Of a stretch of 33,597 nt of DNA, positions 1,251 through 31,057 are shown piece after piece. The notes beneath the pieces are model-generated. The model worked only from the letters and a program-made list of their open reading frames with translations, did no database searches and was not told the origin of the DNA. Origin of the DNA: a virus (lineage: Duplodnaviria > Heunggongvirae > Uroviricota > Caudoviricetes); IMG/VR virus record IMGVR_UViG_3300036453_000040. One strand, 5' to 3'. Every line of letters begins with the position of its first letter. Within the stretch, counting starts at the first letter, position 1. Made by a program: the position numbers and the translations under genes.

Positions 1251-1265
1251 ATATTATATATAACA
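1251..1265 (-). promoter_or_regulatory. Candidate element-specific promoter motif yGTTAnnTAT (tGTTAtaTATAatat-ATG)
   Basis: GTTA at -14..-11 from the ATG, the same position as upstream of 7885, 15262 and 21552. Confidence 0.55.
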
Positions 1266-1296
1266 ACTCAAGCGCTGTCTAAATAATGCTTTAAAC

Positions 1297-2091
1297 CTAT
1301 GCTTGGTCTGCAAGTTGATTTAATGTTTCAGTTTGTTCTGGGCAGTATGTAGCAACACCCGCTCCAATAATATAACTGCGTTCATATACAAGTTCATCAG
1401 AAATATCCGAGTTGCCACCCGACACGAGTTCTATCAAACTTGAAGTCATTGGTTCTTCACTAGACAGCAAAGCGCAACTTTCAAAAGCTAAAGCTTTCGC
1501 TTCTTCAAACGTGAGAACTGAAGTATCTATCAGTCCCAATGACAGACGGAAATTAGCATCTTGTTCAACTGCACTCGAAATAACGGGTTCATCAGCTACA
1601 GGCCCAGAGATAGTTGGATCGTTAGGAGTATCAGACCCCGTATTTGAAGCATTACCAGATACCCCCGTCATAACAGCCATCAATACAAAAAGCCCTACCA
1701 CTAGCAATAATAGAGCACCCGCTACAGATGAGACAATAACAATTGTCTTCTTCTTTGTGCTCCATCCCCTATTTTTTAGAGACGCAGGATTATAACCTTC
1801 TTGTTGCTCATAGCCATTACCTTGATGTGGCATGCCGTAGTTGAGTTGCTGGCCCTGCTGAGGGTAACCGTTAGGCTGTTGCGGAGTGACATGATTAGGA
1901 TTCTGTCCTCGTTGAGGCCGAGGTGGGAGGCTTGCAACTTGGTAAGGCAAAAACTTCTGTGGTGCCTGCTGAGGTGAGGGTGTACCGTTGTTAGGGTTCT
2001 GAGGTGGGTGAGGGTAGCCAGCGGGTGAGTTACTGTCATCAGCCTGATCATAAGGATTCTGATTCGGGTTACCGAATAACGGATTTGACAT
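1297..2091 (-). CDS. Membrane-anchored protein: Pro/Gln/Asn-rich N-terminus, one TM helix, C-terminal DUF732-like domain
   Basis: Low-complexity PQ/NP region; hydrophobic IVIVSSVAGALLLLVVGLFVLMAVM; C-terminal ESCALL...IIGAGVATYCP resembles actinobacterial DUF732. Confidence 0.6.
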   Translation of the reverse strand: MSNPLFGNPNQNPYDQADDSNSPAGYPHPPQNPNNGTPSPQQAPQKFLPYQVASLPPRPQRGQNPNHVTPQQPNGYPQQGQQLNYGMPHQGNGYEQQEGYNPASLKNRGWSTKKKTIVIVSSVAGALLLLVVGLFVLMAVMTGVSGNASNTGSDTPNDPTISGPVADEPVISSAVEQDANFRLSLGLIDTSVLTFEEAKALAFESCALLSSEEPMTSSLIELVSGGNSDISDELVYERSYIIGAGVATYCPEQTETLNQLADQA

Positions 2092-2220
2092 TTAACAGTA
2101 TCGCCTTTCTGGCTTTCCTTATAGGTATCGGAGAAAACTTAAAAGGCATTATGCACAGATCGCGTAAACCTGTGAACTATGGTAACAAGGTAACTCACAA
2201 GCAAAAAGGATTACTACCAT

Positions 2221-2871
2221 ATGATGATGGATGATTTCATTGAAAAGGAATACCTACAGCAAGATGTTGAAGCAGCAGCGTACTCTTTCATAGAGGCAGG
2301 TTTTGTCACAAAACTCGAACTAGCAGAAATGATTCTAGTAAACGTCCTTGATGGAGCTGTAACAGATATCCGCCATGATATGAAAGCAGCTAAAGCCCCG
2401 TTCGTAGAAGAATCCGTTATCGCAAAACGCGCCGAGGAGCTTATTAGGTTATTCTCTGATGAGCTTTACGACAAAACTGTCATTAAGCAAGAATCATGGG
2501 GTGGAACAACTCACCAGAAATTAGCTGTTGCATTTAAAGAGCTAGAGACACAGGGTATTCGCGCTGAAATGAATTTTGAGTGTTGTAACTCATGTGGAGG
2601 ATATGCCATGAAGAACGACGGAAAGTCGGAAGGTTACAAGGGGTACGTGTTCTTCCACGAGCAAGATATGGAAAGTTTACTTTTCGAACGCGTAATGTAT
2701 CTGTCTTACAGCATGTTTAACCAGAAATATGACAATGAGGAAGAGGTAGCTTTAGCTAAGCAAATCATAAAAGTTCTTAAAAAACATAGCTTCGAGATCG
2801 AATGGGATGGCACAGCTGATCATCGTATCAGAATTATTAACCTTGGATGGACCAAACGCCTCATTGACTAA
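2221..2871 (+). CDS. DUF6891-like protein
   Basis: AFKELETQGI..NFECCNSCG..GYVFFHEQD..IEWDGTADHRI pattern recalled as DUF6891. Confidence 0.65.
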   Translation: MMMDDFIEKEYLQQDVEAAAYSFIEAGFVTKLELAEMILVNVLDGAVTDIRHDMKAAKAPFVEESVIAKRAEELIRLFSDELYDKTVIKQESWGGTTHQKLAVAFKELETQGIRAEMNFECCNSCGGYAMKNDGKSEGYKGYVFFHEQDMESLLFERVMYLSYSMFNQKYDNEEEVALAKQIIKVLKKHSFEIEWDGTADHRIRIINLGWTKRLID

Positions 2872-2919
2872 AGCTTCTAGTTCTCTAAGGGAAAACGTTT
2901 TTCCTGCTATACTCCAGAG

Positions 2920-4131
2920 ATGCGAAGAAAAAGCTTTACTAAAAAACCACAAAACCGTAATATTAAGTCAGAACCGCAAGCTAAGACGTTAAAAGAAAAG
3001 CTGGGACTAGCCCACTCAAAAGAAGTTTCTAAGCCCGCAGATGCTACCTTGAGCGCGGCTGAAGACAACATGAGCAACCAATGGGGTGATGGTTTCGGCA
3101 GGCTAGCAACGCGCGCCGCTCAAGGTTTACTTGTACTTACAGCAGTTGCGCTTATCGTTTACGCCATGGTGACACTCAGCATCGTAGTCATCCCGCTCCT
3201 TATCGCAACGATCATCGCTTGCGCAGTTCAACCGTTCGTTAACTTCTTAGAACGCAAAAAGATACCCCGTTTATTCGCAACTATTATTGCTTTGCTTACT
3301 GGAGCAGTAGGTTTTTCAGCTATAGCTACACTGGTAATATTGGGCGTGAAAAACGAGTGGGCAACGCTTACCAAAGAAGTTAACAACGGCATTAATCAGG
3401 TGACAACATTCCTAGCTTCAGGTAGCTCGCCTATTAACAAAGAGCAAATGCATGAGATCACTGCCGCTGCGACGGAGTTCTTCACTAGCGCTCAGTTTGG
3501 CTCTGGAGCGCTAGCTGGAATAGGTGGGGCATTCTCTGCGCTCGCTGGGTTTGCTCTCACAATTGTTATCCTATTTTTCTTCGTCAAGGATGGCCCTGTA
3601 ATCTGGCGTTTTCTTATCGCAGCGTTTAAGCCCTCCATCCGTACGAAGATGAAACGTGTAGGAGAAAGTTCCGTTAAAGTATTAGGCGGGTATATTACAG
3701 GAACAACTGTGGTAGCTCTAGTAGATGCAATTCTAATTGGAGCCGCCCTCTGGATTCTACAGGTACCTCTAGCTTTGCCGCTGGCTCTCGTTGTTTTTGT
3801 AGGAGCTTTTATCCCCATTGTTGGAGCAACACTAGCTGGAGTTATAGCGGCCTTAGTAGCACTAGTAACAAATGACCTCAATACTGCAATTATAGTTGTA
3901 GCTGTAGTAATTGGAGTTAACCAACTTGAAGGAAACTTTCTTGCCCCCGTTGTGCTAGGGAACGCTTTAAAGCTTCACGCATTAGTTATCTTGCTTGCTC
4001 TTAGTATTGGAGCTATCCTTGGAGGAATCGTAGGGACCCTGCTATCCGTCCCAATTGCGGCTGTCTTATGGGCTGCCGTCAAAGCATGGAGAGGCGACTC
4101 TCATCAAAAACTAAAAACCAAGTTAAATTAA
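2920..4131 (+). CDS. AI-2E family (PerM-like) transporter
   Basis: Many TM segments; FFFVKDG, FIPIVGA, NQLEGNFLAPVVLG, GIVGTLLSVPIAA family motifs; TGcTATACT 6 nt before the ATG (leaderless). Confidence 0.9.
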   Translation: MRRKSFTKKPQNRNIKSEPQAKTLKEKLGLAHSKEVSKPADATLSAAEDNMSNQWGDGFGRLATRAAQGLLVLTAVALIVYAMVTLSIVVIPLLIATIIACAVQPFVNFLERKKIPRLFATIIALLTGAVGFSAIATLVILGVKNEWATLTKEVNNGINQVTTFLASGSSPINKEQMHEITAAATEFFTSAQFGSGALAGIGGAFSALAGFALTIVILFFFVKDGPVIWRFLIAAFKPSIRTKMKRVGESSVKVLGGYITGTTVVALVDAILIGAALWILQVPLALPLALVVFVGAFIPIVGATLAGVIAALVALVTNDLNTAIIVVAVVIGVNQLEGNFLAPVVLGNALKLHALVILLALSIGAILGGIVGTLLSVPIAAVLWAAVKAWRGDSHQKLKTKLN

Positions 4132-4141
4132 CTTAGTTAAC

Positions 4142-4191
4142 TAAATAGTTATAGCCGTCAAATATACTATTTTGACGGCTATAACTATTTA
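4142..4191. terminator. Bidirectional terminator-like hairpin, 21-bp stem
   Basis: taaatagttatagccgtcaaa / tttgacggctataactattta between convergent genes. Confidence 0.8.
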
Positions 4192-4623
4192 TGCAAGGTT
4201 TTCAACCTCGATCAAAACACGATCTATCTGGCCATTACGTAAACAATGATAAGCAGTAGTACCACCAAAGCTTTTACGTTTAGTTGCTAACCATAACGCT
4301 ACCTCATCTGGTGACCGAACAAGCTTGACTTTCAGCATGTCTACGACTTCTTTTAGATGAGGTAATAATTTACCACTAATACCAAACTGCCACGCGGGGA
4401 ATAGGAAACTATCTCCATGTTCATCATAAACTGATACAAGATACCCATCAATGCGTAGTTTTTCAATCTCTTCAACTTTAAGATCTAGCCAATGTGCAAT
4501 ACCAGCTATCTCATATAACGGACCAATCTTACGATCCCATGCTTTTTCTTCTTGGCGCTCTTTTATAGACGTAAATAAAACGTTTTGGTTGAGCAGAGAA
4601 GTTTTAAACATAGATAAAGCCAT
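4189..4623 (-). CDS. Rv2175c-like DNA-binding protein with a MbcA/ParS/Xre-type C-terminal domain
   Basis: FLFPAWQF...VVDML...DEVALWL...FGGTTAYHCLRNGQIDRVL pattern; short HTH-like N-terminal part. Confidence 0.6.
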   Translation of the reverse strand: MALSMFKTSLLNQNVLFTSIKERQEEKAWDRKIGPLYEIAGIAHWLDLKVEEIEKLRIDGYLVSVYDEHGDSFLFPAWQFGISGKLLPHLKEVVDMLKVKLVRSPDEVALWLATKRKSFGGTTAYHCLRNGQIDRVLIEVENLA

Positions 4624-4730
4624 TCAGTAGAAGTTTATAGGAATTTGCATACTAATAAGCGAGAATGAACTTAGGAACATGCTTTTATAAGCGTTTTATT
4701 GTGTTAATTTGCTATTAGCTAGAAAATAAG

Positions 4731-4767
4731 AAAATACGACCCATGTAGAAAACATGGGTCGTATTTT
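4731..4767. other. 16-bp perfect inverted repeat in a divergent intergenic region (terminator or operator)
   Basis: aaaatacgacccatgt-agaaa-acatgggtcgtatttt. Confidence 0.7.
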
Positions 4768-4921
4768 ATCTTACAGGAAAAGGATTACTAAATGGTTAAC
4801 AGTAAAACACACAATTTAATTCCTTCTACGAAGTTTTTTGTGAGAGGGCCGTGACTCTTGTGGTCGGGGAGACTTCATATACCCACTAAAGTCAAACTCG
4901 TAGCTCCAAACCAACAACTGC

Positions 4922-4950
4922 TTGACTTTTAAAGAACAAGCTGCTAGCAT
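4922..4950 (+). promoter_or_regulatory. Sigma70/SigA-type promoter
   Basis: TTGACT-N17-TAGCAT with an upstream TG. Confidence 0.55.
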
Positions 4951-4981
4951 ACAATCAGAGAACAATTATGAGGAGAGAAAC

Positions 4982-5314
4982 ATGATTACGAAACGCTGGG
5001 CAGGAATCCTTCGACAGGTTATTGCCGACGCACGCGAAGATGCTAACACTGCGGGCACCCGCAACGGTGGCTACAATGTTTTTCGCTGCTGGCGTCCAAA
5101 CATGAGTTGTACTGAGATGGCCGTAAAGATGGATGCTTACGATAAGTCCTATGAAACTGGACTATATGTGCGAGCTTTGACCATGAATGACTCCGAGAGG
5201 AAGGCTCTCTCGAAGCTTATGAATTACTGGCGCACGGATGACGCAGGACGAGAGCGCCTTGACATTCTTGCCCGTGTTGAAGCACTGGAGAACGCTGTTG
5301 GAGTTAAGAACTAA
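4982..5314 (+). CDS. Hypothetical protein (start revised from 4922)
   Basis: GAGGAG RBS before ATG 4982; the TTG at 4922 coincides with the -35 box. Confidence 0.7.
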   Translation: MITKRWAGILRQVIADAREDANTAGTRNGGYNVFRCWRPNMSCTEMAVKMDAYDKSYETGLYVRALTMNDSERKALSKLMNYWRTDDAGRERLDILARVEALENAVGVKN

Positions 5315-5327
5315 CCAACAAATGACA

Positions 5328-5377
5328 ATATAAGTAATGGCCCCAACTACAGCTGTAGTTGGGGCCATTACTTATAT
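5328..5377. terminator. Perfect 50-bp palindrome with GCCCCAACT core at a convergent junction
   Basis: atataagtaatggccccaactacag|ctgtagttggggccattacttatat. Confidence 0.85.
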
Positions 5378-5378
5378 G

Positions 5379-7799: not shown

Positions 7800-7869
7800 C
7801 AGCTAAACTCAACATACAACAGAACTTGTCGAATTAAAAAGAAACGAATTCAAGTCGAGCATAAAACGC

Positions 7870-7884
7870 TGTTAGGTATATAGC
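7870..7884 (+). promoter_or_regulatory. Candidate promoter motif tGTTAggTATAtagc-ATG
   Basis: 13 of 15 nt identical to the upstream of 21552 (cGTTAgtTATAtagc). Confidence 0.6.
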
Positions 7885-8733
7885 ATGAAGATAGCGCCAA
7901 GCAAGTGCAGCAAAAAACGAAATGAGTACTGCCGCATTCACAACCCTGAGCCAAAAGGGTTCACTCCCGAGAACCGTCGCCGTTTCATCATGCAGGGAAT
8001 CGTAGCATATCGCGCTCAGCAAGCAACCAACTCTAAGCCTGCCTGCGTCCCCGAAGCTGAATCTTATGCGAAGCAGGACGCGGAACAAGCTAGCCTTGAA
8101 AACGATAAGCTAACACAAGAGCACGCTTATCGAGTAGCAGACCTAGACAAGCACATGAACTTAAAAGTTAACAATAAAACAGGAGAGCGAACTATCTCCG
8201 TATACAGAGCAGGAGTACCTCAAGCTCCCTCAGCGCGTACGATAGAAAAAGAATCATATCTTACCGCTGACTCACATGCACCTGAGGGACGACAGGGGCG
8301 CATGTCAGCCGTTTTCGCGTCACCCACCATGCATGGAGTGACCGCATGGGTTAGAGGCACTAGCAGCGTTGTCAGCGATTGGGGAGTAAGAGAGATTCGT
8401 GTTAACCCTGATGAAGTTTACGTTTATTCTGTAAGAGCATGGGAGAAAGCCTCACGGGAAGAAGCAGATCAAGATTCCTCAAAAAAGTATTGGGCTACAG
8501 GTATAACGCTTACAGAATGGAACGAAAAACTGAGATCAGATCCTCAGCTAGACCCACAAGAATGGGAACTACTCATAGGTGAGTCACAGTTTAAAGCTAA
8601 ACCGAAGCCAGTAGCTGCTGAAAAAGTAGCAAGGAGTTCATACTCATCTGATAACGGAGAACCTAATCTAAACTTACTTCTCCTCCTTACCAGAGACCTA
8701 AAGAAGCGCAAGCAAGCAGATAAAGCTTCTTAA
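7885..8733 (+). CDS. C-x7-C-x2-H-tagged protein with a possible divergent ART-fold domain
   Basis: N-terminus KCSKKRNEYCRIHNP; ISVYRAG...VFASPT...REIRV; the fold call is weak. Confidence 0.55.
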   Translation: MKIAPSKCSKKRNEYCRIHNPEPKGFTPENRRRFIMQGIVAYRAQQATNSKPACVPEAESYAKQDAEQASLENDKLTQEHAYRVADLDKHMNLKVNNKTGERTISVYRAGVPQAPSARTIEKESYLTADSHAPEGRQGRMSAVFASPTMHGVTAWVRGTSSVVSDWGVREIRVNPDEVYVYSVRAWEKASREEADQDSSKKYWATGITLTEWNEKLRSDPQLDPQEWELLIGESQFKAKPKPVAAEKVARSSYSSDNGEPNLNLLLLLTRDLKKRKQADKAS

Positions 8734-8796: not shown

Positions 8797-8825
8797 TTGA
8801 CACTATTGTTAAGTTATGTTAGAAT
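8797..8825 (+). promoter_or_regulatory. Near-consensus sigma70/SigA promoter
   Basis: TTGACA-N17-TAGAAT with an extended TG. Confidence 0.8.
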
Positions 8826-9793: not shown

Positions 9794-10039
9794 CTATGCG
9801 GTAGTAGAGGAACTCCACTTACTCACATGAATCAAGGTTACGGGCAGTTCAATCTGCTCTGTTTTCCACCACGTAGCAGCGGAACCCCATTCCATTTCTC
9901 TTTTCAGCCCTTCAACGGCGGGGCCAGAATAATCAGACTGATATACCCATCCTTCAACGTCAACAACTGCTGACCCGATTGGAAGAGCTTCCAGAGCAGC
10001 ATAGCTTACGAGCTTATCGCCAACTGATACTTCAGCCAT
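9794..10039 (-). CDS. Small hypothetical protein of a type common in actinophages
   Basis: ALEALPIGSAVVDVEGWVY pattern; GAGG RBS. Confidence 0.7.
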   Translation of the reverse strand: MAEVSVGDKLVSYAALEALPIGSAVVDVEGWVYQSDYSGPAVEGLKREMEWGSAATWWKTEQIELPVTLIHVSKWSSSTTA

Positions 10040-10194
10040 GTTATCCTCTTTCTTTTAGTTATTAATAAGTTTAACATGGTTACAAGCCAAAAGCAAGAAC
10101 CACTGAATTTTTTTGTTACCTTTTGCTTGGTATTTTGGTTTTTTAAAGATGATGCAATTCTCTTTAAAACGGCTTAAACATGGTATAATTAACT

Positions 10195-10533
10195 ATGACA
10201 ATATCTAAAGTTACTGAAGAAGAAGAGTTCGATGCGGTCTTGTATGGAGATTCTGAGGAGGGAACTCTAATTGAAGACAAAATCACTGGAGATGGCCGCT
10301 GGGTTGATTACCACTATGCGGTCTGGAGCGAAAAACATGATGACGAAACCTATTACTTTGGTTACTCGTATGATGTTCCCTCAACTGAAGTTCAAGAAGG
10401 TTCCGAGAGCGAATTCAACGCAAGCGAAATTCACGAAGTTTTCCCGAGATCTGTTGTAGTAACTAAGTACTATAACAAAACTGAAGTTGCAAAGATTGAC
10501 GCTGATCGCGCAGCGCTACCTACAAAAAAGTAA
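10195..10533 (+). CDS. Acidic phage-type hypothetical protein (likely leaderless)
   Basis: GRW...YYFGYSYDVPSTEVQEG; TGgTATAAT 5 nt before the ATG. Confidence 0.75.
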   Translation: MTISKVTEEEEFDAVLYGDSEEGTLIEDKITGDGRWVDYHYAVWSEKHDDETYYFGYSYDVPSTEVQEGSESEFNASEIHEVFPRSVVVTKYYNKTEVAKIDADRAALPTKK

Positions 10534-13933: not shown

Positions 13934-15262
13934 TCAGTAGGACTTACGAAGAAGGTTAATCTCGTAAGTCAAACCGCGTAATGATTCTCTTAGTTTATCT
14001 AGTCCACCTTTTTGATTACGATAAACATCAGCGTTCAACAATCTCTCCTTGACCCTCTTGTGAGAGGTATTATCATAGTAGGAGTTCTTCTCAAGGTAGC
14101 GCTCCTGCTTAACCAGTGAATCATAGTTCTGGTCACTAGAATCTAGTTTTGCCCTAGTAGTATCAAAAGTCTTACGATACTCAGCCATGGTTTTTCTTGC
14201 TTGTTCTTTCATTTCATCAGATGAACGTCCAAGAACCGTACGTCGCGAATGGGAGATCATGCGAGTAGCAATTTTAACCTCCCGCAGCATAGCCGTTGTC
14301 TCTTGATCTGAATACGCTGGAGTAACGGAACCCTTATACTTTAAGCTTTCTACTACGTTGTCTGGCAGGTCACTACGAGCTGCAAGCAAGGTCTTAGCTT
14401 TAAGATACTGTGCAGACGTAAGAGAGTTGTTCTTAGCGAGAATCGTAGCTATCGTTTTAGTATCAGAGTTAGGATTGTCGAGGACCTTATCCACGGCGAC
14501 TGAATCGTGCGCTCCAATAGAAGCTAAGGTACGTGGGTTAGTTGCGTACTCTGCAAAGAGCAGTCTACTTGGTGCCCCAGCGGAGCTAGACGTATCGTAT
14601 AGCAAGCCAGATTCTTGTTTATAGCTAGCAGCAACAAACGGCCATGAGGTTCGAGACCCGTCAGTATAGTCTTTTCGAATTTTGGCTATTAGGGCATGAG
14701 GACCTATAGCTCGTTTTGCCACATCTACAGCATCAGGAGACAATTTCTCTCTTTCAAGTAACGCTTCAACTCTAGCATGAGTAGCTTTGTTATCCCTTGA
14801 CCGAGGGTCTCCCATCATATCGCTGAGCTTATATGAGAACTTAGAGGAACTCAAGTTATTATTTTTACGAATGAAGTTAAGTTTGTCCTCTTCTGTCAAG
14901 TTCTCATAAGCTTGTTGAAAAGCCGTTGATGAAAAGTTAGGGTTACTTAAAAACATATCTAAGGTCTCAGGTGTAGCATTCTTACTCCAACCAGAGAGGA
15001 TATCTCTTTCTTCAGAAGAATCTGCAATATCTGTAAGCTTACTGCCAACAAGTTCACGTAGTTTATCGAGGTCATTACCTTTCACGGCGTTAAACCCGTC
15101 AAGTATACGAGAGTCGCGTTCTTTATCTGCTTGTTCCACTATCGCTCGAAATGTGGAGTACCTCTCAAAGTTACCATCTGATAACGCCGTAGAAATGAGG
15201 GTACTCATCTCTCCACGGGAACAGAACTTGCCAGAATAAGGGTCATGATAAGGATTAGCCAT
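13934..15262 (-). CDS. MANPYHD-tagged alpha-helical protein with a C-terminal coiled coil
   Basis: N-terminus MANPYHDPYSGKFCSRGEM shared with 19266..20540; NPN-type helical repeat motifs; cGTTAggTATc motif upstream. Confidence 0.7.
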   Translation of the reverse strand: MANPYHDPYSGKFCSRGEMSTLISTALSDGNFERYSTFRAIVEQADKERDSRILDGFNAVKGNDLDKLRELVGSKLTDIADSSEERDILSGWSKNATPETLDMFLSNPNFSSTAFQQAYENLTEEDKLNFIRKNNNLSSSKFSYKLSDMMGDPRSRDNKATHARVEALLEREKLSPDAVDVAKRAIGPHALIAKIRKDYTDGSRTSWPFVAASYKQESGLLYDTSSSAGAPSRLLFAEYATNPRTLASIGAHDSVAVDKVLDNPNSDTKTIATILAKNNSLTSAQYLKAKTLLAARSDLPDNVVESLKYKGSVTPAYSDQETTAMLREVKIATRMISHSRRTVLGRSSDEMKEQARKTMAEYRKTFDTTRAKLDSSDQNYDSLVKQERYLEKNSYYDNTSHKRVKERLLNADVYRNQKGGLDKLRESLRGLTYEINLLRKSY

Positions 15263-15277
15263 AAAAGATACCTAACG
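15263..15277 (-). promoter_or_regulatory. Candidate promoter motif cGTTAggTATctttt-ATG
   Basis: GTTA at -14..-11 from the ATG. Confidence 0.55.
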
Positions 15278-15373
15278 ATACGAAAAATATAAGTTCGTCA
15301 GCATTTAAGCTATAAAAATGAGTTTAATGCTAAACTACCAAAGTCAATAACCCGTAACATGTTAGGTAACAAT

Positions 15374-16093
15374 ATGAGAATAGTCGTAGCAGCTTGTTCT
15401 GCCATTTATACAGGCAGGGGTGACACGCAACTTGTTAAAGCAGTACGTGCAATCATGTTCAAGGATGACGGTTCGATCTCTATACATAATGACCAAAGTA
15501 ACAAACCACTCAACTATATGGGTAAGGGAAACGTCTTCTCTGAAGTTGTTATTGGGAGCGAGATGATATGGACATTTGATACGCGGAAAGAAAGTCTCCA
15601 AATTCACATGTATGAGATTGTATCAGACACGGATTTTGACTTAACCTTAGATGACTTAGGTTTAGTGCGAGATGGCACAGAAGATCAACTGCAAGCATGG
15701 TTAGCAGAGAACCCAGAAGCTCTCGGAGAGGGTTTTACACTTGTTAGTAGAGAATACCAAACAGGAGACGGGCCAGTGGACCTGCTTGTACTAGATAAAC
15801 TAGGTAACCCCATCGCTGTAGAAGTTAAAAGAACTGCAATGATATCAGCAGTTGATCAAGCAAGCAGGTACCTAGGTGGACTTAAAGACACTGAAGGCTT
15901 TGAGAACGTTCGCTCTATGATAGCGGCCCTTGATATCCGACCTAACACTCTTAAGCTTGCTGAGAAACGTGGGGTAGAATGCGTTACATTACCCAGCACA
16001 TGGCGGAATGCGTCATTTCTTAAAGAAACTACCATTGAACTCAAAGCAATTGAAATAACTGAAGCTGAAAATACGTCAGAAGACAAGTTATAG
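15374..16093 (+). CDS. nucS: Mismatch-specific endonuclease NucS/EndoMS
   Basis: MRIVVAACSAIYTGR, FKDDGSISIH, KPLNYM, GTEDQLQAWL, REYQTGDGPVDLL, AVEVKR, AVDQASRY; start revised from 15359. Confidence 0.92.
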   Translation: MRIVVAACSAIYTGRGDTQLVKAVRAIMFKDDGSISIHNDQSNKPLNYMGKGNVFSEVVIGSEMIWTFDTRKESLQIHMYEIVSDTDFDLTLDDLGLVRDGTEDQLQAWLAENPEALGEGFTLVSREYQTGDGPVDLLVLDKLGNPIAVEVKRTAMISAVDQASRYLGGLKDTEGFENVRSMIAALDIRPNTLKLAEKRGVECVTLPSTWRNASFLKETTIELKAIEITEAENTSEDKL

Positions 16094-16138
16094 TTAGAGG
16101 AGAGGTGCAGTTATTAACTGCACCTCTCCTCTAACTAT
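16090..16138. terminator. Bidirectional terminator-like hairpin, perfect 23-bp stem
   Basis: atagttagaggagaggtgcagtt-att-aactgcacctctcctctaactat between convergent genes. Confidence 0.85.
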
Positions 16139-17330: not shown

Positions 17331-17360
17331 TTGACAAAAGCAACTAAACTGCCATATAAT
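17331..17360 (+). promoter_or_regulatory. Consensus sigma70/SigA promoter
   Basis: TTGACA-N18-TATAAT. Confidence 0.7.
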
Positions 17361-17410: not shown

Positions 17411-18124
17411 ATGAGTTCCACCTGCAAAGCAGAGATTCGCTCCGATTGCCGTTTCCACGGGCGCAAAGCATATGCTCGCACCCTCCTCCAAATTTCTGAC
17501 ACGCTTAAGGTAGCTAAAAAAGCTGACACTTTCGAGCAGAAAGAGTTCTGGAACTCGCGACTCTGCAAGTTTGAGGTCTCACGGGATGCTACCGCTATTG
17601 GATTCAAGAAACTCACTAAAGAGCTTAGAAAGGTTCTGAAGTCGGGCACAGTAGAAGATCAGAATGTTATTGTAGCTCGTATTAGTGAAGCCGCAGAGCT
17701 TCGCCTACTTGACGGCTACCGCAGTGAATGGGCTGACTGCTATAGTGACCTGTTCGCCTTTGGTTCTAGGATTATCGAACTCAGCCGCACGAACGAAACG
17801 GTTCGAGTTCCCGCCGCACTCCTCGGAACGCAGACCGTTGGCATCATTGCTGACAGGTTGCAGCGAGAAGGTTTTACGGTAACTAACTTTACAGTTGTGG
17901 ACTTCACTAGCAACCGTGGCCTCAGCGACGAGCGCCTTGCAGAAATTCAAGCTGGTACTCTCGACTACTTCAATACATTTGGTGGAGAAGATATCTGGGA
18001 TTACATTAACGAAAAGAACTGCGCATTGCGTGGTCTCATGTTCAAGGATGAGAACGGCAAAGAAACGGTAGTCCTCGGAGACATTAGTATCGATACCGAG
18101 AACAACGATAAGAACGGTTATTAA
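17411..18124 (+). CDS. C-x7-C-x2-H-tagged hypothetical protein (start revised from 17396)
   Basis: AGGA RBS before ATG 17411; N-terminus MSSTCKAEIRSDCRFHG. Confidence 0.7.
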   Translation: MSSTCKAEIRSDCRFHGRKAYARTLLQISDTLKVAKKADTFEQKEFWNSRLCKFEVSRDATAIGFKKLTKELRKVLKSGTVEDQNVIVARISEAAELRLLDGYRSEWADCYSDLFAFGSRIIELSRTNETVRVPAALLGTQTVGIIADRLQREGFTVTNFTVVDFTSNRGLSDERLAEIQAGTLDYFNTFGGEDIWDYINEKNCALRGLMFKDENGKETVVLGDISIDTENNDKNGY

Positions 18125-19110: not shown

Positions 19111-19130
19111 TTACTTATTTTATCACAAAA

Positions 19131-19168
19131 AAGCGGGTAAGACAAGAAAAATCTTATCTTACCCGCTT
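19131..19168. terminator. Hairpin (12 bp + 4 bp) between co-oriented minus-strand genes
   Basis: aagcgggtaaga ... tcttacccgctt, with an A-run on the left (U-tract on the minus strand). Confidence 0.65.
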
Positions 19169-19265
19169 CGAATTATTACGCTTAGAGCGTTGCGCAAATA
19201 GAAGCGAAAAGCACTCCGCCTCTAAAGTAGAATTGGTCATTTTCCTTATGATAAGGAGTCATGAC

Positions 19266-20874: not shown

Positions 20875-21552
20875 TCATTCTGGGAAACTAACACCAAACT
20901 CATTGAGGTCATTGCCCTCAGTCCATAGGTACCTAGCAGGAATCTTCGCTTCTAACACGGGCCAATCATCCGCTGCGTCATCTTGCATACCATGTTGCAA
21001 GGCATAGCTTTTACTCATAGTAACCCAGTCACCGTTGTTAATCTGGTTAACTCCATGTGGAGCGCTTCTATAAATAGTAACTAAAGCGTCAGGGTTACCC
21101 TGTATACGCTTCATTATGTTCACAGAATTACGGTCAAGATCCCCCGTATACCAGTCTGGGTGTTCCATCACGTCAGAAGGGAAAATTTTAGCTAACTCAT
21201 GTGCGCCTTTAGCTGATTCGTCATCATCTAACCCATCAGGAGCACGATGAGACATGTAATACTCGCTGTTAGCAGGGCGAGAGCCAAACCCTTGTTTCCA
21301 TTCTGGAACTGTGACGGTTTTAACGGGCTTTGTAGCCTTCGTTAAAGTAGTAGACCCACCTTGTCCAAACATTGCTAATAATGCCTTAGCGTCAGGCTTA
21401 GCGGTCTTCTCGCTAGCTTTAGCTGACAGGTAAGCACTCACGTTGCCGCTAAGAGCAGCTTGTGTTACCGCAGAACTATGGCCAATAGAACAATTAGTCG
21501 TCCAACATCCACTACCATCAGAATGAGTATAAGGAGCTTGACGTTTCGACAT
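20875..21552 (-). CDS. Cys/His-tagged protein with an ART-like domain of the kind seen in phage polyvalent/MuF-linked proteins
   Basis: N-terminus APYTHSDGSGCWTTNCSIGH; C-terminal SHRAP, VTIYRS, GDWVTMSKSYALQHG, NEFG. Confidence 0.6.
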   Translation of the reverse strand: MSKRQAPYTHSDGSGCWTTNCSIGHSSAVTQAALSGNVSAYLSAKASEKTAKPDAKALLAMFGQGGSTTLTKATKPVKTVTVPEWKQGFGSRPANSEYYMSHRAPDGLDDDESAKGAHELAKIFPSDVMEHPDWYTGDLDRNSVNIMKRIQGNPDALVTIYRSAPHGVNQINNGDWVTMSKSYALQHGMQDDAADDWPVLEAKIPARYLWTEGNDLNEFGVSFPE

Positions 21553-21567
21553 GCTATATAACTAACG
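21553..21567 (-). promoter_or_regulatory. Candidate promoter motif cGTTAgtTATAtagc-ATG
   Basis: Near-identical to 7870..7884. Confidence 0.6.
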
Positions 21568-25200: not shown

Positions 25201-28200
25201 AAGAGGAGATAAGGTGCTAGCTATGGTTCCGTTTGAGTTAGGTTCAATAACAGTGGTGTGTCCTTCAGCATCCTTGACGGAAGTTAATGCCCCTGTCGCA
25301 TTATAAAACATATACGTTGCATTACCGTAGGCATCTGAGGACTTAGACGGCGCTCCGTGCTCATTATAGCCAGAGTAAAATAGTTGTCGCCCATTCTCAT
25401 CTATGGAAATTTTTAGGTTACCCGCAAAATCATAATATAGCGAACGAGAAGAACCATCAGGTTGATATACCGCTGTTATGTTTCCTGTAGAGTTATAAAC
25501 ATAAGTCCATGCTAGGGGGTTAAGACTACCATATCCTTTTATCTCTTTTACTAGCTGGCCAAAGTTCGCGTATGATTGTTGAACTTGACTACCATCAGCA
25601 TAGGTGATTAATGTAGTTGAGGAACCATCCGTTGAGTTTGGGTTGATAACGTACTCAAAAGCAATTTCATTACCTTCTGGATCTGTTTGCTTTATAAGTT
25701 TATTTCCATAATATACGTTAAAAGTTGTTTCTCCTGTCGCACCAACCATGGTAAGCACTTTATGAGCAGAATCATACGTATACTGTTTAAGTACCCCTTG
25801 GTTGTCTTCAACAGAGATTAGGTTATCATTATTATCGTAGACATATCCAACGTAGTAACCAGAAGAGTCAGTGACCCTGCTAATATTTCCACTTGAGTAC
25901 GTAAGTTCGATGAACTTGCCATTATCGCCTGTGATCTTACTTATACGATTTGAAGAATCATAAGATATTAGAAGACGATTATTATAAGCATCCGTTTGGG
26001 AAAGAACGTTTCCATTTATGGAAGAGAATGTAAATTTAGCTCCACCACTGCGTTCCATTACAAACGAATCCGTCAGCGACGAATATGTTAACGATGCTAA
26101 AACTCTAGAAGGAGCAACGTACTCTCCTGAGGGTGTCTTTACGAATGTTACAGTTGACCCGTTTTCTTGAGTAATCTGAATCGATTGCTGGTCTTGTAAA
26201 TTAGTTGTGCTTAGGTCTTCAGCATTACGCAACTTCATATTATAATTGTTTGTCCAACCATAACCCATATTGTTATCGTTTTTATTTGCAGTAAGAACAC
26301 CATAAGCTCGCACGAACTGAAGAGGTAACCCTACGTTAGTTAACGTTACATCGACGTTCTGCTCCCAGAATTCTCCTGTGACAGTATTTATTGGGTCTCC
26401 AGCGCATGCTTGTGTACAATTTGCGGACGGGTTTGAACCACCATATAATTCTGAGGTTGGGACTCCATCAGTGCCCACAGCCCCACCATGCGTTACAAGC
26501 AAAGTATTTGACATGGCTTGAATATCCGTGACGCCAATGATAGAATTATTTTCGTCCTTTTTTGGAGTTCCAACATATGCAACAACATAGTTACTCGTAT
26601 TCTGAGGAAGATATATTTCGGAAGAAGTATGATAATAGGGGATCGTCCACCATGTATTGTCTGTGGCATTATGCATTACATAATTATAGCCTGCCCAAGT
26701 TATGTCTTGGTTCGGCTCAAACCCAAGGGTTGCAATGTAATATGAACTATAGGCATCCTTACGGGTGGTATAACCAACGGAAAGAGTCCAATCTTTACGT
26801 GTAGCTGTTACGGGTGAGCTTATCGCTTGAATTTCTGTAAGCTGGGAAACATTGCTGAGGGTTGTATCTCTCCGCGCGATATACGCAACATATGTTCGAG
26901 ATTTTTCTTGAGCTTTCCAATCAACATCTACTACCAAGTTGCCATAGTTTGTACTTCTTACAATAGATCCCGTGTCAGTCCTTATTAGATAAGTTTCGTA
27001 ATCGCTATAGTAAGTTTCTTGGTCAGGTATAACAGTAACGATTGGTTTCATGTCGTGATTAGAATTATAATAAGTTGGCTCAAACACTGGATTCACAATG
27101 GATATATCCATAGCCCATGCTTTTCTAGTGAAGGTTATTGTATTGCTTACTGCTTCAATATTATTTAAGGCAGTTATCGTTGAAGCAGTGTTATCTGTTG
27201 GCGCTACATAAGCGGTAACGTTGAGCGGGTCACCTGATCTAAAGTAGACTTCCGCTAAACCAGTTAGGGAACTTGCTCCCCATGGAGACCTATAAAAGAT
27301 ACCTCCAGTAGAATCATTTACCATGTAGATACTGTAATTAGAAAAATAATAGTCTTGGTTAACCGCAAAAGTTGCGTACGGCTTTTTCTCATATTCTACA
27401 TCTTGGTTGGCTGCCTCAAACACTGGGTTTATTGCGGCAAGGGAAATAGTCCATGCTTCACGTTCAGCCGTTACGACTCCGCTTTCTGCCTGAATATTAA
27501 TAAGTTCTTCAACTTTAGTAGGAGCCGTATCAGTCCATTCAGAAACGTATGCTTGGTAGCTTCTTGTTTTATCTCCACCTCTCCACGTTATCTCACCTCC
27601 TGCGCGAAAACTACCATGTTGCAGAAAACTCAGCGTGTTATTTGTAATATCAAATACATATATTCCGTATATTGTAGAGCTAGGGTCTTGGTTTGCATCC
27701 GCCGTGATATAAGTTTTTTCGTCTGACCCGAACAGCGGATTATCAATCTGGAGGTCAATACCCCAGCCAGTATTCATGCTTACAGACTGTTGATCAGCTA
27801 ATGGTTCAGCTAGAGGTGCTTCTTGGTTAGAATCCACGACATATGACTTCGGCATCTTGCTAGATGGGACTTTAGGCGACTTTACAGCTAGCTTCTTATC
27901 ACTTTTCGAGGATGGTAAAGCTTCAGTGGTCTCACTATTCTTAGAAGTTGAAACCGAAACCGCCCGAATTGCGGCAGATTGAGCATGGATCTTATTATGT
28001 GCGGTTGTGTCGATTACGAATGTACAGTCAACTAATACCGTGCATGTTTTTAATATTTCGAAGGTTTCAGAATCAACGATAGATACGGGGTATTCGCTAG
28101 GAACGCTTTTTACATTGCCAACAACAATAACTTCAGCTTGAGGCGCGATACCTGTTGGTTTAATTACTAGAGATAAATTTTCAAGCTTTTCTGCTTTTTC

Positions 28201-28359
28201 AGCGAGCGGGTAATTGGAATTATCTGCAACTTTTCCTGCGGTTGGGTCTTGTCCATTAGCTGCTACTGCTGATTGCGGTGAAAGAGTAAGCGACGTAACC
28301 ATGATCACAGAAGCTAAAACAAAACTCATTATTGACTTATAGTTCATATTAAAACCCAC
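22270..28359 (-). CDS. Secreted RHS/YD-repeat polymorphic toxin with a NucA/NucB-like DNase tip
   Basis: Sec signal (MNYKSIMSFVLASVIMVTSLTLSPQSAVA); GDPINTVTGEF (DUF6531-like); YD repeats; RFGYAGQYLD..YYMRARWYDP core; PLSYTDPLG cleavage motif; tip NRSESLKGIP..DRDESPPA..SVRYINPSDNR. Confidence 0.9.
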   Translation of the reverse strand: MGFNMNYKSIMSFVLASVIMVTSLTLSPQSAVAANGQDPTAGKVADNSNYPLAEKAEKLENLSLVIKPTGIAPQAEVIVVGNVKSVPSEYPVSIVDSETFEILKTCTVLVDCTFVIDTTAHNKIHAQSAAIRAVSVSTSKNSETTEALPSSKSDKKLAVKSPKVPSSKMPKSYVVDSNQEAPLAEPLADQQSVSMNTGWGIDLQIDNPLFGSDEKTYITADANQDPSSTIYGIYVFDITNNTLSFLQHGSFRAGGEITWRGGDKTRSYQAYVSEWTDTAPTKVEELINIQAESGVVTAEREAWTISLAAINPVFEAANQDVEYEKKPYATFAVNQDYYFSNYSIYMVNDSTGGIFYRSPWGASSLTGLAEVYFRSGDPLNVTAYVAPTDNTASTITALNNIEAVSNTITFTRKAWAMDISIVNPVFEPTYYNSNHDMKPIVTVIPDQETYYSDYETYLIRTDTGSIVRSTNYGNLVVDVDWKAQEKSRTYVAYIARRDTTLSNVSQLTEIQAISSPVTATRKDWTLSVGYTTRKDAYSSYYIATLGFEPNQDITWAGYNYVMHNATDNTWWTIPYYHTSSEIYLPQNTSNYVVAYVGTPKKDENNSIIGVTDIQAMSNTLLVTHGGAVGTDGVPTSELYGGSNPSANCTQACAGDPINTVTGEFWEQNVDVTLTNVGLPLQFVRAYGVLTANKNDNNMGYGWTNNYNMKLRNAEDLSTTNLQDQQSIQITQENGSTVTFVKTPSGEYVAPSRVLASLTYSSLTDSFVMERSGGAKFTFSSINGNVLSQTDAYNNRLLISYDSSNRISKITGDNGKFIELTYSSGNISRVTDSSGYYVGYVYDNNDNLISVEDNQGVLKQYTYDSAHKVLTMVGATGETTFNVYYGNKLIKQTDPEGNEIAFEYVINPNSTDGSSTTLITYADGSQVQQSYANFGQLVKEIKGYGSLNPLAWTYVYNSTGNITAVYQPDGSSRSLYYDFAGNLKISIDENGRQLFYSGYNEHGAPSKSSDAYGNATYMFYNATGALTSVKDAEGHTTVIEPNSNGTIASTLSPLGYKTSYVYDAENNIASAIDDANSLMAFSYDASGNVTQAKDVDGNITSSAYDTRGNVTTVTDENNNVTTTTYDNNSRPIAVKDTLGNISELKYDLNGNLLKSINAEGSATTYIYDNLNQVISVTDSLGSIIEYKYDIYGHMVLSRDALGNETAYEYDWRGNVLKVTSPEGLITRNIYGADGKLKESYDAADNKTSYTYGVTPAANLATVTDAVGNVTSYVYNKNGQLTSVTKPDGTTESWVFDPDGRTTSHTDSASKTATYDYNNINQLIASNIAGVATGYTYNLAGQVSSKIAADSSTTGYAYDNRGQLTNISYSDLLTPAIEYKYDALGRKTSMVDGTGVTTYTYDKLSRLLTETKGSDTTSYAYNALLETSITYPSGEVASYGYDALNRLQSVKSSSLANPIKYSYDKDSRIASTDYGNGVTGVNSYATNGAIGKINYSSASSALLTYAYTYNSLNLVTNKAVTREAITVNDGYEYDSLSRLGNKNAVAAYSFDNSNNILTRDNGTQLTYNALSQITSLADTVDSSTTNYAYDTRGNRVSASLDLASTTTSDNTYGYNLANQLVEAQLAANPPPENTVEAGIATDLTYSYDGNGLLSGKTKVNGSTGSSDSYVWNTNTSIAQLLEDDKYNYIYGLGSTPLAQVDKTTSNVEYLHGDSIGSVSLVTDSVGLEVAQYTYDDYGVQTAGELGHVTTRFGYAGQYLDEDTGYYYMRARWYDPVTAQFITVDPALAKTNLPYGYTVGNPLSYTDPLGLSSETLAFLNGAAGFMNGMSGGLYEAYLGAVAPGVIDICSSVYQVGNVAGSVAGLVVPGAAGVKIAGLIVKASAGLFKTAKVAGKAKFPTILNAMLSKRETVYIHGKTKTKINANIYAQFNSQQARFGEAALHNGDALQGKKILVQRLSSADASINRSESLKGIPTKKGFDRDESPPASISAGGVGASVRYINPSDNRRHGRALLQFYTDNQIKVGDWFIYK
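26490..27765 (-). repeat. Four tandem ~105-aa beta-rich repeats in the RHS N-terminal region (boundaries approximate)
   Basis: Units start WGIDLQIDNPLF / WTISLAAINPVF / WAMDISIVNPVF / WTLSVGY and end IQAESG / IEAVSN / IQAISS / IQAMSN. Confidence 0.75.
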
Positions 28360-28693
28360 CCGTTTAAATTGTCCTACAACTTACATCGGGTGATTCACAG
28401 AATAAAGTTCCTTTTATCTTAAATAAAATTTAGCTAAATACATGGCTGGGAACTATTTTCCCTCAAGTACCATTCATAATGTCCTACCCTGACAGTTGTG
28501 AGCGGCTCAAAGCCGTCATTACGGTAATGAGCAAACCCGCTGTTGATACAAATAAGCAGGTTGATTTCACCTTGTATGAATTACATAATTAGAGGCGAAG
28601 TAGACTCTGCACATAAGATTGATATGACACTAGTTTTTATCTTGGATTAAGAGTATCAAAGTACTAACAAAGTCGCAGTAATTTTTAGCGGCT

Positions 28694-28743
28694 AACACAA
28701 AAACTCCTAAGCGACTAATTACGCGCTTAGGAGTTTTTGTGTT
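28694..28743 (-). terminator. Terminator-like hairpin, 20-bp stem
   Basis: aacacaaaaactcctaagcg / cgcttaggagtttttgtgtt, immediately after the J-protein stop. Confidence 0.8.
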
Positions 28744-29739
28744 CTAAATTGGAAATTGTTCCGTACGAGTTTTCCAGATCAACTTCGAAGCCATTAGCTT
28801 GCTTATAAACACAGCTACCGAAATTATGGCGAAAATGCTTATAAAACTGCCAAATGAACTCGCGCCATTAAATGAAAATAAAATCTGAACAAAACTTAAA
28901 ATACTTCCTAACCCAAACCATAAACCCATAAATGAGTTACGAAATTTTATATCTGCCTTTTTCCATGTTTTCACAGTAGCATAGCCAGCATTCGAGAACT
29001 GAAAAATCGCATATGCAGGACCAAGCTTATCCCACTTCGCTTGTTCTTTCTCTTGAGCGCGTCTCATACGGGCATAATACTCGTTAGCTGATTCAGAATT
29101 AGGATGCCCAGAATGACTATTCGCTTTCTTCCTGCTGTTTGCCTTCCTTTTTTCTTCATTTTCAGCATAAGCAGCGTAGCGTTCTTCTCTATTCCTAGTA
29201 TCTTGCTCTTGTTGCTCTTTAGCGTATTGAGTGGCTCGCCCTTCCCTATCTCTCGTTGAAGTGTTCGCACGCTGACGACGAGCTTGAGCATGAGCTTCAT
29301 CTGTCTTGACCTGTTCACGGGCAGCTTTGCTTGCTTCTTCGTTTACGCGGATTTTCTCCTCGGAAGCCTTAAAGACTTCTTCCTTAAAAAAGTCTCCCTG
29401 AAACCCGTACTTGAAGAAATCCTGAAGAAATTCTTCCGTATAGATTGGTTCACTCTGTTTTGGGGAACTAGTATACGTCTTTGTAGTGGGCTGATATGTA
29501 GCTCCTCTACTACCAGTAGAGTTAGACGCGTTAGCTTTTCTCCGCTGAAGTAGCGAGTCATAGCTTGCCCGCTTATTAGGGTAACCGAGTGTCTCCCATG
29601 CTTCTTGCACTTTGCGGAACACGTCAACGTCTCCACCAAGGTCAGGGTGACTGGAGCGAACAAGTTTACGGTAAGCAGTTTTAAGCTCTTCAGGGGAGGC
29701 TAGGTTACTCACCTTCAACACATCATACAAAGTGCTCAT
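28744..29739 (-). CDS. J-domain (DnaJ type III) protein with C-terminal TM helices
   Basis: LYDVLKV...LKTAYRKL...HPDLGGD; charged linker; two hydrophobic C-terminal helices. Confidence 0.88.
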   Translation of the reverse strand: MSTLYDVLKVSNLASPEELKTAYRKLVRSSHPDLGGDVDVFRKVQEAWETLGYPNKRASYDSLLQRRKANASNSTGSRGATYQPTTKTYTSSPKQSEPIYTEEFLQDFFKYGFQGDFFKEEVFKASEEKIRVNEEASKAAREQVKTDEAHAQARRQRANTSTRDREGRATQYAKEQQEQDTRNREERYAAYAENEEKRKANSRKKANSHSGHPNSESANEYYARMRRAQEKEQAKWDKLGPAYAIFQFSNAGYATVKTWKKADIKFRNSFMGLWFGLGSILSFVQILFSFNGASSFGSFISIFAIISVAVFISKLMASKLIWKTRTEQFPI

Positions 29740-29776
29740 GCTAGTCCGTCCCTAATCATTTTTCTCTCGTACCCTG

Positions 29777-29805
29777 ATTATATCATGAAAAAACACCATT
29801 CGCAA
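29777..29805 (-). promoter_or_regulatory. Sigma70/SigA-type promoter
   Basis: TTGCGA-N17-TATAAT with TG on the minus strand. Confidence 0.7.
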
Positions 29806-29870
29806 GCAAGTTAAAATGCGTTGCAACAGCGTTTATATTCTTTATACTTTTTGTAGTTTTTGTAGTTCGC

Positions 29871-30623
29871 TTAAGTTTTGGTCTTCATGTACTCCATTTT
29901 TCTCATTTCCCACACGACTTTACGGCCGAATATAAGACAAGAAATGATTATTGCATCAATGAACAATGCAAAAAATGAAGCAACGATGAAAGCTAGAGTG
30001 AACAAAGAGGACGGTTCCATGTTTATGAAGTTAATAACAAATACAGCAATGTTAATTGGAATAAGGGTAAGGAGAACTGTCTTCAATATGAGGGAATCAG
30101 TTCTTTTCCACTGTTGTACAAGAAAGAATTCAGCAGTGGACGTTCTGAATGCATTATACTTAGCTCCAAGTTTTGACCATTTAGCAGCTATATATTCTTC
30201 CTTGAATGTTGTGTCTTCTTTTGCGAAAGTACCGTTCATTTTCGCCATGTCTTCATGAATCTTGTTTATGAGTCGCGTTTGTTCATCGCGCATTTCTTGC
30301 CATGCTTTTTTATCTTCGAATAGTCCAGCGGGACGATCACGAGCTTCTGTAGCCATGCGAGCTTCTGCATACATGCGTGCTTTTCTTGCAAACTGCGTGT
30401 CATCGTTAGGCGAGGTAGTTGCGCGAGGCGCGTGAGTTTGGTCATAGGCCGCGCGCTTTGTAGGAGTCTCGATAGTCTCCCATGCTTCTTGAACCTTACG
30501 AAACTTTTTTATGTCTCCACCAAGGTCAGGATGATTCTCTCGTACCTTCCGACGATATGCCGTTTTGATCTCTGCATGGCTAGCAGTTGCTGCAACACCT
30601 AGCACCTTATAACAGTTGCTCAC
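29871..30623 (-). CDS. J-domain protein with C-terminal TM helices, paralog of 28744..29739 (start revised to GTG 30623)
   Basis: CYKVLGV...IKTAYRR...HPDLGGD; GAGGAGG RBS before the GTG; shared KW.KLG..Y..F...WK..D segment. Confidence 0.85.
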   Translation of the reverse strand: MSNCYKVLGVAATASHAEIKTAYRRKVRENHPDLGGDIKKFRKVQEAWETIETPTKRAAYDQTHAPRATTSPNDDTQFARKARMYAEARMATEARDRPAGLFEDKKAWQEMRDEQTRLINKIHEDMAKMNGTFAKEDTTFKEEYIAAKWSKLGAKYNAFRTSTAEFFLVQQWKRTDSLILKTVLLTLIPINIAVFVINFINMEPSSLFTLAFIVASFFALFIDAIIISCLIFGRKVVWEMRKMEYMKTKT

Positions 30624-30797
30624 AATCCTCCTCATAAGTTCGTTGTTCAATTTCACTCAAGCGCAATCTTATCACAATTAAACATATATTCGCAAATCAA
30701 AAACAAGAAAGTTTAATGTGAAAATATTAGTCATGCGCTAGCTATTGTCAGTAGCATGTGTTAGAGTTAAGTTATTCACGAAGAGAGGCTGTTCATT

Positions 30798-30947
30798 ATG
30801 ATGCTCGTCAACTCCCGTACCGCTAAAAGCTGCTGCAAGGACTGCGACAGCAACTATGGTCACAGCGATAACTCCAAAGCCAAGAACCAGTTGAAGCGCG
30901 CTGTTCGTCGCCGCGAGAAGCGCAACTGGAAAGCAGACCAGAACTAA
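30798..30947 (+). CDS. 49-aa basic Cys-containing peptide missed by the ORF track (MMLVNSRTAKSCCKDCDSNYGH...KRAVRRREKRNWKADQN)
   Basis: GAGAGG RBS; open frame to TAA at 30945-30947; followed by a hairpin. Confidence 0.7.
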   Translation: MMLVNSRTAKSCCKDCDSNYGHSDNSKAKNQLKRAVRRREKRNWKADQN

Positions 30948-30964
30948 ACATTAAGCACCACCTA

Positions 30965-31004
30965 TAATTGTAGCTCCAACCTAATGAGGTTGGAGCTACA
31001 ATTA
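30965..31004. terminator. 18-bp-stem hairpin with a variant core (GCTCCAAC/GTTGGAGC)
   Basis: taattgtagctccaacct-aatg-aggttggagctacaatta. Confidence 0.75.
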
Positions 31005-31041
31005 GTTTAAGCTCATCTCAGCATTGCACTCTTAACGAAAC

Positions 31042-31057
31042 CGTTATTTATAAGAGT
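31042..31057 (+). promoter_or_regulatory. Candidate promoter motif cGTTAttTATAagagt-ATG
   Basis: GTTA at -15..-12 from the ATG. Confidence 0.5.

Follow-up and report, generated by a model that had tools for sequence, protein, structure and literature searches.

A ten-base motif precedes five tagged genes

We examined a 33,597-nucleotide stretch of DNA (the window) from a virus of the Caudoviricetes (IMG/VR record IMGVR_UViG_3300036453_000040), in which five genes lie immediately behind a ten-base motif with the consensus yGTTA(g/t)(a/t)TATa. The predicted products of these genes carry a short Cys/His motif, or a variant of it, near the N-terminus (the tag). All five of the upstream sequences quoted in the original prediction, which was made from the letters of the window, were found there as given, with GTTA beginning at -14 relative to the ATGs at 1250 (-), 7885 (+), 15262 (-) and 21552 (-), and at -15 relative to the ATG at 31058 (+). 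Site 1 (tGTTATATAT, aatat and ATG; 1248..1265, minus strand) precedes an ADP-ribosyltransferase gene (258..1250, minus strand) whose product has the N-terminus MCYPSPGPRCSSH. Site 2 (tGTTAGGTAT, atagc and ATG; 7870..7887, plus strand) precedes a gene at 7885..8733 (plus strand) with the N-terminus KCSKKRNEYCRIH, the orthologues of which in the related contigs L006, L012 and L021 retain both motif and tag. Site 3 (cGTTAGGTAT, ctttt and ATG; 15260..15277, minus strand) serves a gene (13934..15262, minus strand) with the variant N-terminus MANPYHDPYSGKFCSRGE, and site 4 (cGTTAGTTAT, atagc and ATG; 21550..21567, minus strand) a gene (20875..21552, minus strand) whose tag reads GCWTTNCSIGH and whose product has a domain like the ParB C-terminal domain. 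Site 5 (cGTTATTTAT, aagagt and ATG; 31042..31060, plus strand) precedes a gene (31058..32107, plus strand) with the tag RPCRANNPKICPHHG, which belongs to a family named GNAT-superfamily acetyltransferase by one source. All five genes are monocistronic or divergent.

These starts had been predicted to lack both a ribosome-binding site and a properly spaced promoter hexamer. The first part holds, in that the 5-6 nt spacers of the five sites contain no Shine-Dalgarno sequence. As to the second, a sigma-70-type two-hexamer match is present at site 1 only (TAGACA-17-TATAAT); it stops 2 nt short of the ATG and is badly placed for a start at 1250.

The signal is positional

Relatives of the window were retrieved through a single tagged-gene family, that of the 31058 protein, and the set used for testing comprised 171 kb of 34-49% GC (the window together with contigs L006, L008, L010-L016, L020 and L021). 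In the window the pattern GTTANNTAT occurs nine times, compared with 6.6 +/- 2.7 times in shuffled sequences, and there is no overall enrichment. The signal is one of position: five of the nine copies are placed at -14/-15 relative to an ATG with which a long open reading frame (ORF) begins. Across the 171-kb set, 22 of the 54-55 copies lie at -14/-15 of an ATG that opens at least 70 codons, whereas 102 permuted patterns of the same composition placed a mean of 0.25 copies there and a maximum of 9, the maximum being the motif itself one base out of register. The original observation holds, and it reaches far outside the window. Moreover, matches to a position-weight matrix that scored at least 14 bits lay upstream of an ORF in 26 of 26 cases, and 24 of these ORFs encode the Cys motif.

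The motif recurs in contigs of 34-49% GC, where the orthologous proteins are 40-55% identical and the flanks are not conserved; among the sites, neither the spacer, nor the first 5-20 codons, nor the upstream DNA shows conservation. That the flanks are unconserved argues that the sites are not recent copies of one another and that it is the motif itself that is under selection. Where the relatives have 58-61% GC, the orthologues lie behind cCGTTAGAGAt/g followed by a leader of ~13 nt that starts at GGAGG.

The anatomy of the motif was read from 20 sites with a 5-nt spacer. G-14, T-13, T-12, A-11, T-8, A-7 and T-6 were set by the search pattern, and the other positions were unconstrained. At these free positions T is favored at -16, position -15 is T in 11 sites, C in 8 and G in 1, clear preferences are seen for K (G/T) at -10 and W (mostly A) at -9, and a is favored at -5. 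A pyrimidine occupies -1 in 20 of the 20 sites, compared with 60% of 57 control genes, and +1 is the A of the ATG. Positions -64 to -17 of these sites carry no information above background, which argues against a -35 element, and no TTGACA-like element was found 16-18 bp upstream. The G (TG) of an extended -10 element is present at -15/-14, G-14 itself being fixed by the search pattern. The TAnnnT rule, however, is broken at every sampled site: A-11 is present, but -7 is A and the T falls at -6, giving TA-N4-T. Altogether, 22 copies precede an ATG (20 with a 5-nt spacer and 2 with a 6-nt spacer) and one further copy, with a 5-nt spacer, precedes a GTG (L021 3924); the spacers of the 22 ATG copies and of the GTG copy contain no GGAGG-like word.

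The motif is linked to the N-terminal tag

We scored the tag as C-x4-8-C-x1-5-H within the first 60 residues, and the motif as present near the start, for ORFs of at least 90 amino acids. Among 185 ORFs, 23 had both motif and tag, 8 had the motif only, 6 had the tag only and 148 had neither (Fisher p = 2e-17). Most of the apparent exceptions are variants of the tag (GKFCSRGE, C-x4-C and CRAHVKPC) or of the motif (GTTATAGAT, GTTAGGAAC and GTTAGATAC); the second gene of a tandem pair on contig L008 is a true exception. The tightness of this link is in keeping with the original proposal that the tagged proteins form one regulon, but the link is not absolute, since the tagged genes at 17411 in the window and at 9843 (-) on contig L111 (which is outside the 171-kb set) depart from it.

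Two of the tagged proteins (L006 2441 and L021 15362) gave weak matches to RNA ligase 1, below the Pfam cut-off. In the orthologues from the relatives of 58-61% GC, the tag takes the form MAKFHIN..GNPG.C.AKPGNCP.G..DH (L022:3584-3640, L023:9797, L024:9932 and L027:9934). A different Cys-rich N-terminus, MCQPKSEGGKRCDCDNS..RR.RRKAS, is found in four tandem paralogues of ~555 amino acids (L111:14683-21110, minus strand) whose starts are led by Shine-Dalgarno sequences.

The motif looks more like a promoter than a signal for translation

Four copies of the motif that lie 12-43 nt further upstream (L006 6821, L021 13478, L012 4486 and L021 18396) still precede tagged genes, and the leaders of these displaced copies carry the Shine-Dalgarno sequences AGGTGAG, AAGGAAAAAG or GAGGAAA. 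These leadered copies, together with the leaderless copy at a GTG start, argue that the motif is not a translation signal. In addition, strong, terminator-like hairpins (-20 to -44 kcal/mol) are found no more than 66 nt upstream of ~8 of 24 sites, and most of these hairpins stop 0-10 nt before the motif, which makes read-through from upstream unlikely. Bacterial RNA polymerase prefers to start at Y-1/R+1, and the Y-1/A+1 seen at the sites fits this preference. Position, conservation in relatives, the link to the tag and the leadered copies therefore lend indirect support to the idea of an element-specific leaderless promoter, and we count the related form cCGTTAGAGAt/g in the high-GC relatives on the same side. 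On the strength of these sequence features we think it likely that the motif represents a phage-specific promoter class for predicted leaderless mRNAs that is linked to tagged genes.

A second class of upstream element, TGnTAnAAT, lies 5-6 nt before the ATG of leaderless genes and, in the 171-kb set, precedes only untagged genes. In the window, this contrasting class is exemplified by the sigma-70-like extended -10 sequence TGGTATAAT followed by 5 nt and the ATG of an untagged leaderless gene (10181..10197, plus strand), with further sites at 22260-22243 and 19125-19108 (both minus strand). The untagged genes had been thought to have TTG-N17-TAnnnT promoters; what they have for the most part is an extended -10 element without a good -35, and many of them are leaderless too. 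The tag-linked motif and the TGnTAnAAT class share Y-15, G-14, T-12 and A-11, and TGTTAGAAT (at 8817 and 20576) is one base apart from TGTTAGATAT. The tag-linked class differs in having T-13, T-8 and A-7, which the search pattern fixes, at every sampled site, so breaking the TAnnnT rule. To call the motif non-sigma70, as was originally done, is too strong, because the upstream half of the motif is that of an extended -10 element. Given this upstream half and the likeness to the T4 late box described below, the reader of the motif is most likely a sigma-70-family module with a specificity unlike that of host sigma A.

Comparison with known systems

The original prediction drew a loose analogy with the late box of phage T4, TATAAATA, which the minimal sigma factor gp55 recognizes in the absence of a -35 element (PMC2988020, PMC7892883). 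In sequence the likeness appears closer than that. T4 late promoters, which use gp55 with gp33 and the gp45 clamp, likewise have a phage-specific, AT-rich box of 8-10 bp at -10 and lack a -35 element; the core of our motif, TA(g/t)(a/t)TATA, is identical to the T4 box at 5-7 of 8 positions, and TATATATA variants are one base off. The two differ in that the motif has an extra yGT upstream and T, not A, at position 5 of the box, and in that its box lies at -12..-5 of the presumed start, as opposed to -13..-6, of transcripts that are predicted to be leaderless. Among the ORFs of the window there are no homologues of gp55, gp33 or gp45, and comparison of these ORFs with Pfam, PHROGs and NCBIfam revealed nothing related to transcription.

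Extended -10 promoters of the form TGnTATAAT, including the middle/late class of Thermus phage P23-45 (PMC3950348), are also close: they have no -35 element, they have Y-15, G-14, T-12 and A-11 in common with the motif, and their leaderless members lie at the same distance from the ATG. The motif differs from them in having A-7, T at -6, T-13 and T-8, and in serving tagged genes instead. Actinobacterial leaderless promoters (for which see PMC3898074, PMC4633059) are similar in that the -10 element lies 5-7 nt before the ATG or GTG with no Shine-Dalgarno sequence; our motif, however, specifies more positions than the housekeeping -10 hexamer. The start-associated sequences of Cluster K mycobacteriophages and Cluster EF Microbacterium phages (PMC3203893, PMC7302621) resemble it in behavior, being short, asymmetric sequences in one orientation that are found a few bases before the start codons (mostly ATG) of a non-structural subset of genes, are kept across a phage cluster and are rare in the host. 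They are, in contrast, 13 bp long and include the core of a Shine-Dalgarno sequence, and their presumed role is in translation, whereas our motif lacks such a sequence and is AT-rich and -10-like; it does not fit the GGGA(T/A)AGGA(G/C)CCC type (PMC3203893) and is unrelated to it in sequence.

SPO1 late promoters (CGTTAGA-N17-19-GATATT), which are read by gp33/gp34 (PMC3601020), contain the words cGTTAGA and GATAT, both of which are found inside cGTTAGATAT. In SPO1 the two words form distinct -35 and -10 elements with 17-19 bp between them, whereas here they overlap in one 10-bp box, and the resemblance is probably coincidental. The late promoters of AR9 (AACA-N6-TA/G) and phiKZ (TATG), which belong to phage-encoded multisubunit RNA polymerases (PMC5312081), are, like the motif, short, phage-specific and without a -35 element, with a T-purine step at the start; they differ in sequence, and AR9 transcripts have 5' untranslated regions of 26-491 nt rather than being leaderless. 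No phage RNA polymerase genes were seen in the sampled DNA. Our literature searches turned up no description of a yGTTA(g/t)(a/t)TATa motif. The closest systems by mechanism are T4 late and extended -10 promoters, and by genomic behavior the start-associated sequences.

Several other candidates were set aside: an archaeal TATA box, in view of the bacterial or phage nature of the genes; an ECF-type CGT -10 element, as there is no -35 element; a sigma-B/F-type GGGTAT element, as the G run is not conserved; and a T7-like promoter, as the conserved stretch is not long enough for one and A is the start base.

A model for the motif and its alternatives

We suggest that the motif is probably a core promoter element in the -10 region, needing no -35 element, in a clade of huge uncultivated phages. 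RNA polymerase would start ~14 nt downstream of the G of the motif, which in most copies would place the start at the A of the ATG and yield an mRNA without a leader or a ribosome-binding site; a minority of copies would give rise instead to a short leader with a Shine-Dalgarno sequence. The element would amount to an extended -10 stretched by one base (TA-N4-T as opposed to TA-N3-T) and would also be T4-late-like, its reader presumably being a gp55-like factor of the phage or host sigma A in a modified form, and not the unmodified host holoenzyme. Its targets would be almost exclusively monocistronic genes for tagged proteins, including the ADP-ribosyltransferase and the GNAT-like family, which would be made together as a class. 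By the logic that host-like promoters act early and deviant ones later, expression would be expected in the middle or late phase. The ADP-ribosyltransferase is reminiscent of T4 Alt, a late, packaged protein; against this stands a T4-type polynucleotide kinase-phosphatase gene on contig L011, which lies behind a variant of the motif and whose T4 counterpart is expressed early.

A fuller version of this model, which we advance only tentatively, is that the motif is the site of an undescribed phage specificity factor (a gp55-like sigma or a phage RNA polymerase) that, in actinobacterial phages of 0.5-0.8 Mb, switches on a leaderless regulon made up almost entirely of zinc-knuckle-tagged enzymes; the tag would direct them to a common destination (perhaps the capsid, for injection), and promoter and label would have co-evolved. 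Several observations weigh against the main model outlined above. The sampled DNA, which amounts to only ~3% of any related genome, yielded no gene for a sigma factor, a gp55-like protein or a phage RNA polymerase. The tagged gene at 17411 uses a perfect sigma-70 promoter (TTGACA-N18-TATAAT; 17331..17360, plus strand), the sole 12/12 match in the window, and the sequence formerly taken for a weak variant of the motif before this gene is better read as its Shine-Dalgarno region (AGGAAA). Likewise, the tagged gene at L111 9843 (-) lies behind sigma-70-like TGGTAGAAT-N6-ATG, and in an orthologue on L111 the motif is displaced or degenerate. Conversely, the L011 gene (L011:1376-2428, minus strand) encodes an untagged T4-type polynucleotide kinase-phosphatase (AAA_33 and HAD_PNKP) behind GTTAGTAAT-N5-ATG. 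Five small actinobacterial genomes (6.4 Mb in total) contain the strict motif pattern only twice, but they almost lack a sigma-70-like control pattern as well, so that rarity in host genomes is no proof of a phage factor. Finally, because the loci are centered on one tagged family, with the regions of structural genes outside the sample, the exclusivity of the tag is possibly overstated.

Some of the same evidence bears on the idea, which we regard as rather doubtful, that the motif is an ordinary host sigma-A promoter, the holoenzyme reading G-14, T-12 and A-11 and tolerating a one-base stretch, and the link to the tag reflecting shared strength or ancestry. Actinobacterial sigma-A promoters often lack a -35 element and have a loose -10 consensus, which counts in favor of this idea, as do the failure to find a phage sigma factor in the sampled DNA, the identity of the upstream half of the motif with the phage's own extended -10 and the single base that separates the closest members of the two classes. 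It is difficult to reconcile, however, with the A at -7 of every sampled site in place of the T required by region 2 of sigma-70-family proteins, and with the T-8, A-7, T-6 triplet at every site (though this triplet is fixed by the search pattern). The motif, moreover, has been kept in distant phages with more specified positions than a housekeeping -10 hexamer, and the two promoter classes divide cleanly into tagged and untagged genes in the 171-kb set.

A further possibility is that the motif is an operator, overlying an otherwise weak promoter and bound by a phage repressor or activator, or else a passively inherited 5' module of promoter and tag that has spread by recombination between genes. 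Either would account for the co-travel of motif and tag on otherwise unrelated proteins and for a motif that is short and in a single orientation. We consider both unlikely: a spreading module is hard to square with the unconserved spacer, first codons and upstream DNA, the motif has no dyad symmetry, and the sites have no other promoter-like element in common. Least probable, in our view, is an RNA-level signal, be it a cleavage site at which the transcript is trimmed to a leaderless mRNA or the site of a RegA-like repressor. The distance to the start codon is fixed in ~85% of copies, as such a signal would suggest, and the binding consensus of T4 RegA contains a GUUAUGUAA-like sequence. Yet the copies with leaders of 12-43 nt lie at variable distances from the ATG, the hairpins 0-10 nt upstream leave no obvious upstream transcript that would bear the motif, and a -10-like composition followed by Y-1/A+1 is that of a promoter.

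Whichever factor reads it, the motif provides a simple annotation rule: matrix matches of at least 14 bits fix start codons and pick out one co-regulated class, which is of use in huge uncultivated phages in which most genes are unannotated. A promoter class tied to an N-terminal tag suggests that the tagged enzymes share their timing and probably a common fate, and this tie is an independent and testable handle on the tag hypothesis. In addition, a -10 element stretched by one base, midway between the extended -10 and the T4 late box, may show in what way minimal sigma factors come to differ in specificity.

The window, its relatives and the probable host

The ORFs of the window include an adjacent clpP1-clpP2 pair, nucS, an FtsK-like ATPase, a 2029-amino-acid RHS nuclease toxin and two DnaJ-domain proteins, besides the ADP-ribosyltransferase and many genes without a family. 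Contigs that carry homologues of the 31058 protein are recorded at up to ~1.0 Mb, the largest of those sampled being 791 kb, 725 kb and 695 kb. On the 695-kb contig (L008:1-21110), 47 tRNA genes lie within 21 kb, with motif-bearing tagged genes inside the array. Cultured phages and plasmids gave zero matches to the window (megablast and tblastn). The size of the related contigs, the tRNA locus and the lack of a cultured match fit the view that the window is part of a huge uncultivated phage genome. No relative of the 7885 protein was found among the genome contigs searched, nor of the 31058-family alignment among the viral contigs searched, and exact-pattern scans of viral and metagenome contigs gave no match; the window's own genes were recovered on Logan contigs of only 4-9 kb. 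(Note that viral loci L001-L004, which were reached through the ParB-C-like domain, proved to be unrelated phages and were excluded from the analysis.)

ClpP of the phage is 69-73% identical to that of Micrococcales and other Actinomycetota. Together with the presence of NucS and the abundance of leaderless genes, this points to a probable actinobacterial host; leaderless translation is reported to be a common feature of that phylum (PMC3898074).

The prediction that a weak variant of the motif precedes nucS was correct as to the sequence (tGTTAGGTAA, caat and ATG; 15360..15376, plus strand, divergent from site 3), but in this possible variant GTTA lies at -13, relative to an ATG at 15374. This ATG, rather than that at 15359, is likely the true start of nucS, since the match to Pfam NucS_N sets in at residue 6 of the longer ORF. 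Between nucS and the divergent 15262 gene lies a spacer of 96-111 bp, its length depending on which nucS start is taken, with a GTTAGGTA box on each strand.

Two of the related huge-phage contigs carry genes with a prepilin-type N-terminal methylation motif (N_methyl; L006:17590-18631 and L111:7056-8189). Within the window, long perfect palindromes with stems of 16-20 bp lie at gene ends (16091-16137, 5329-5376, 19130-19169 and 4731-4767) and are probably two-way terminators.

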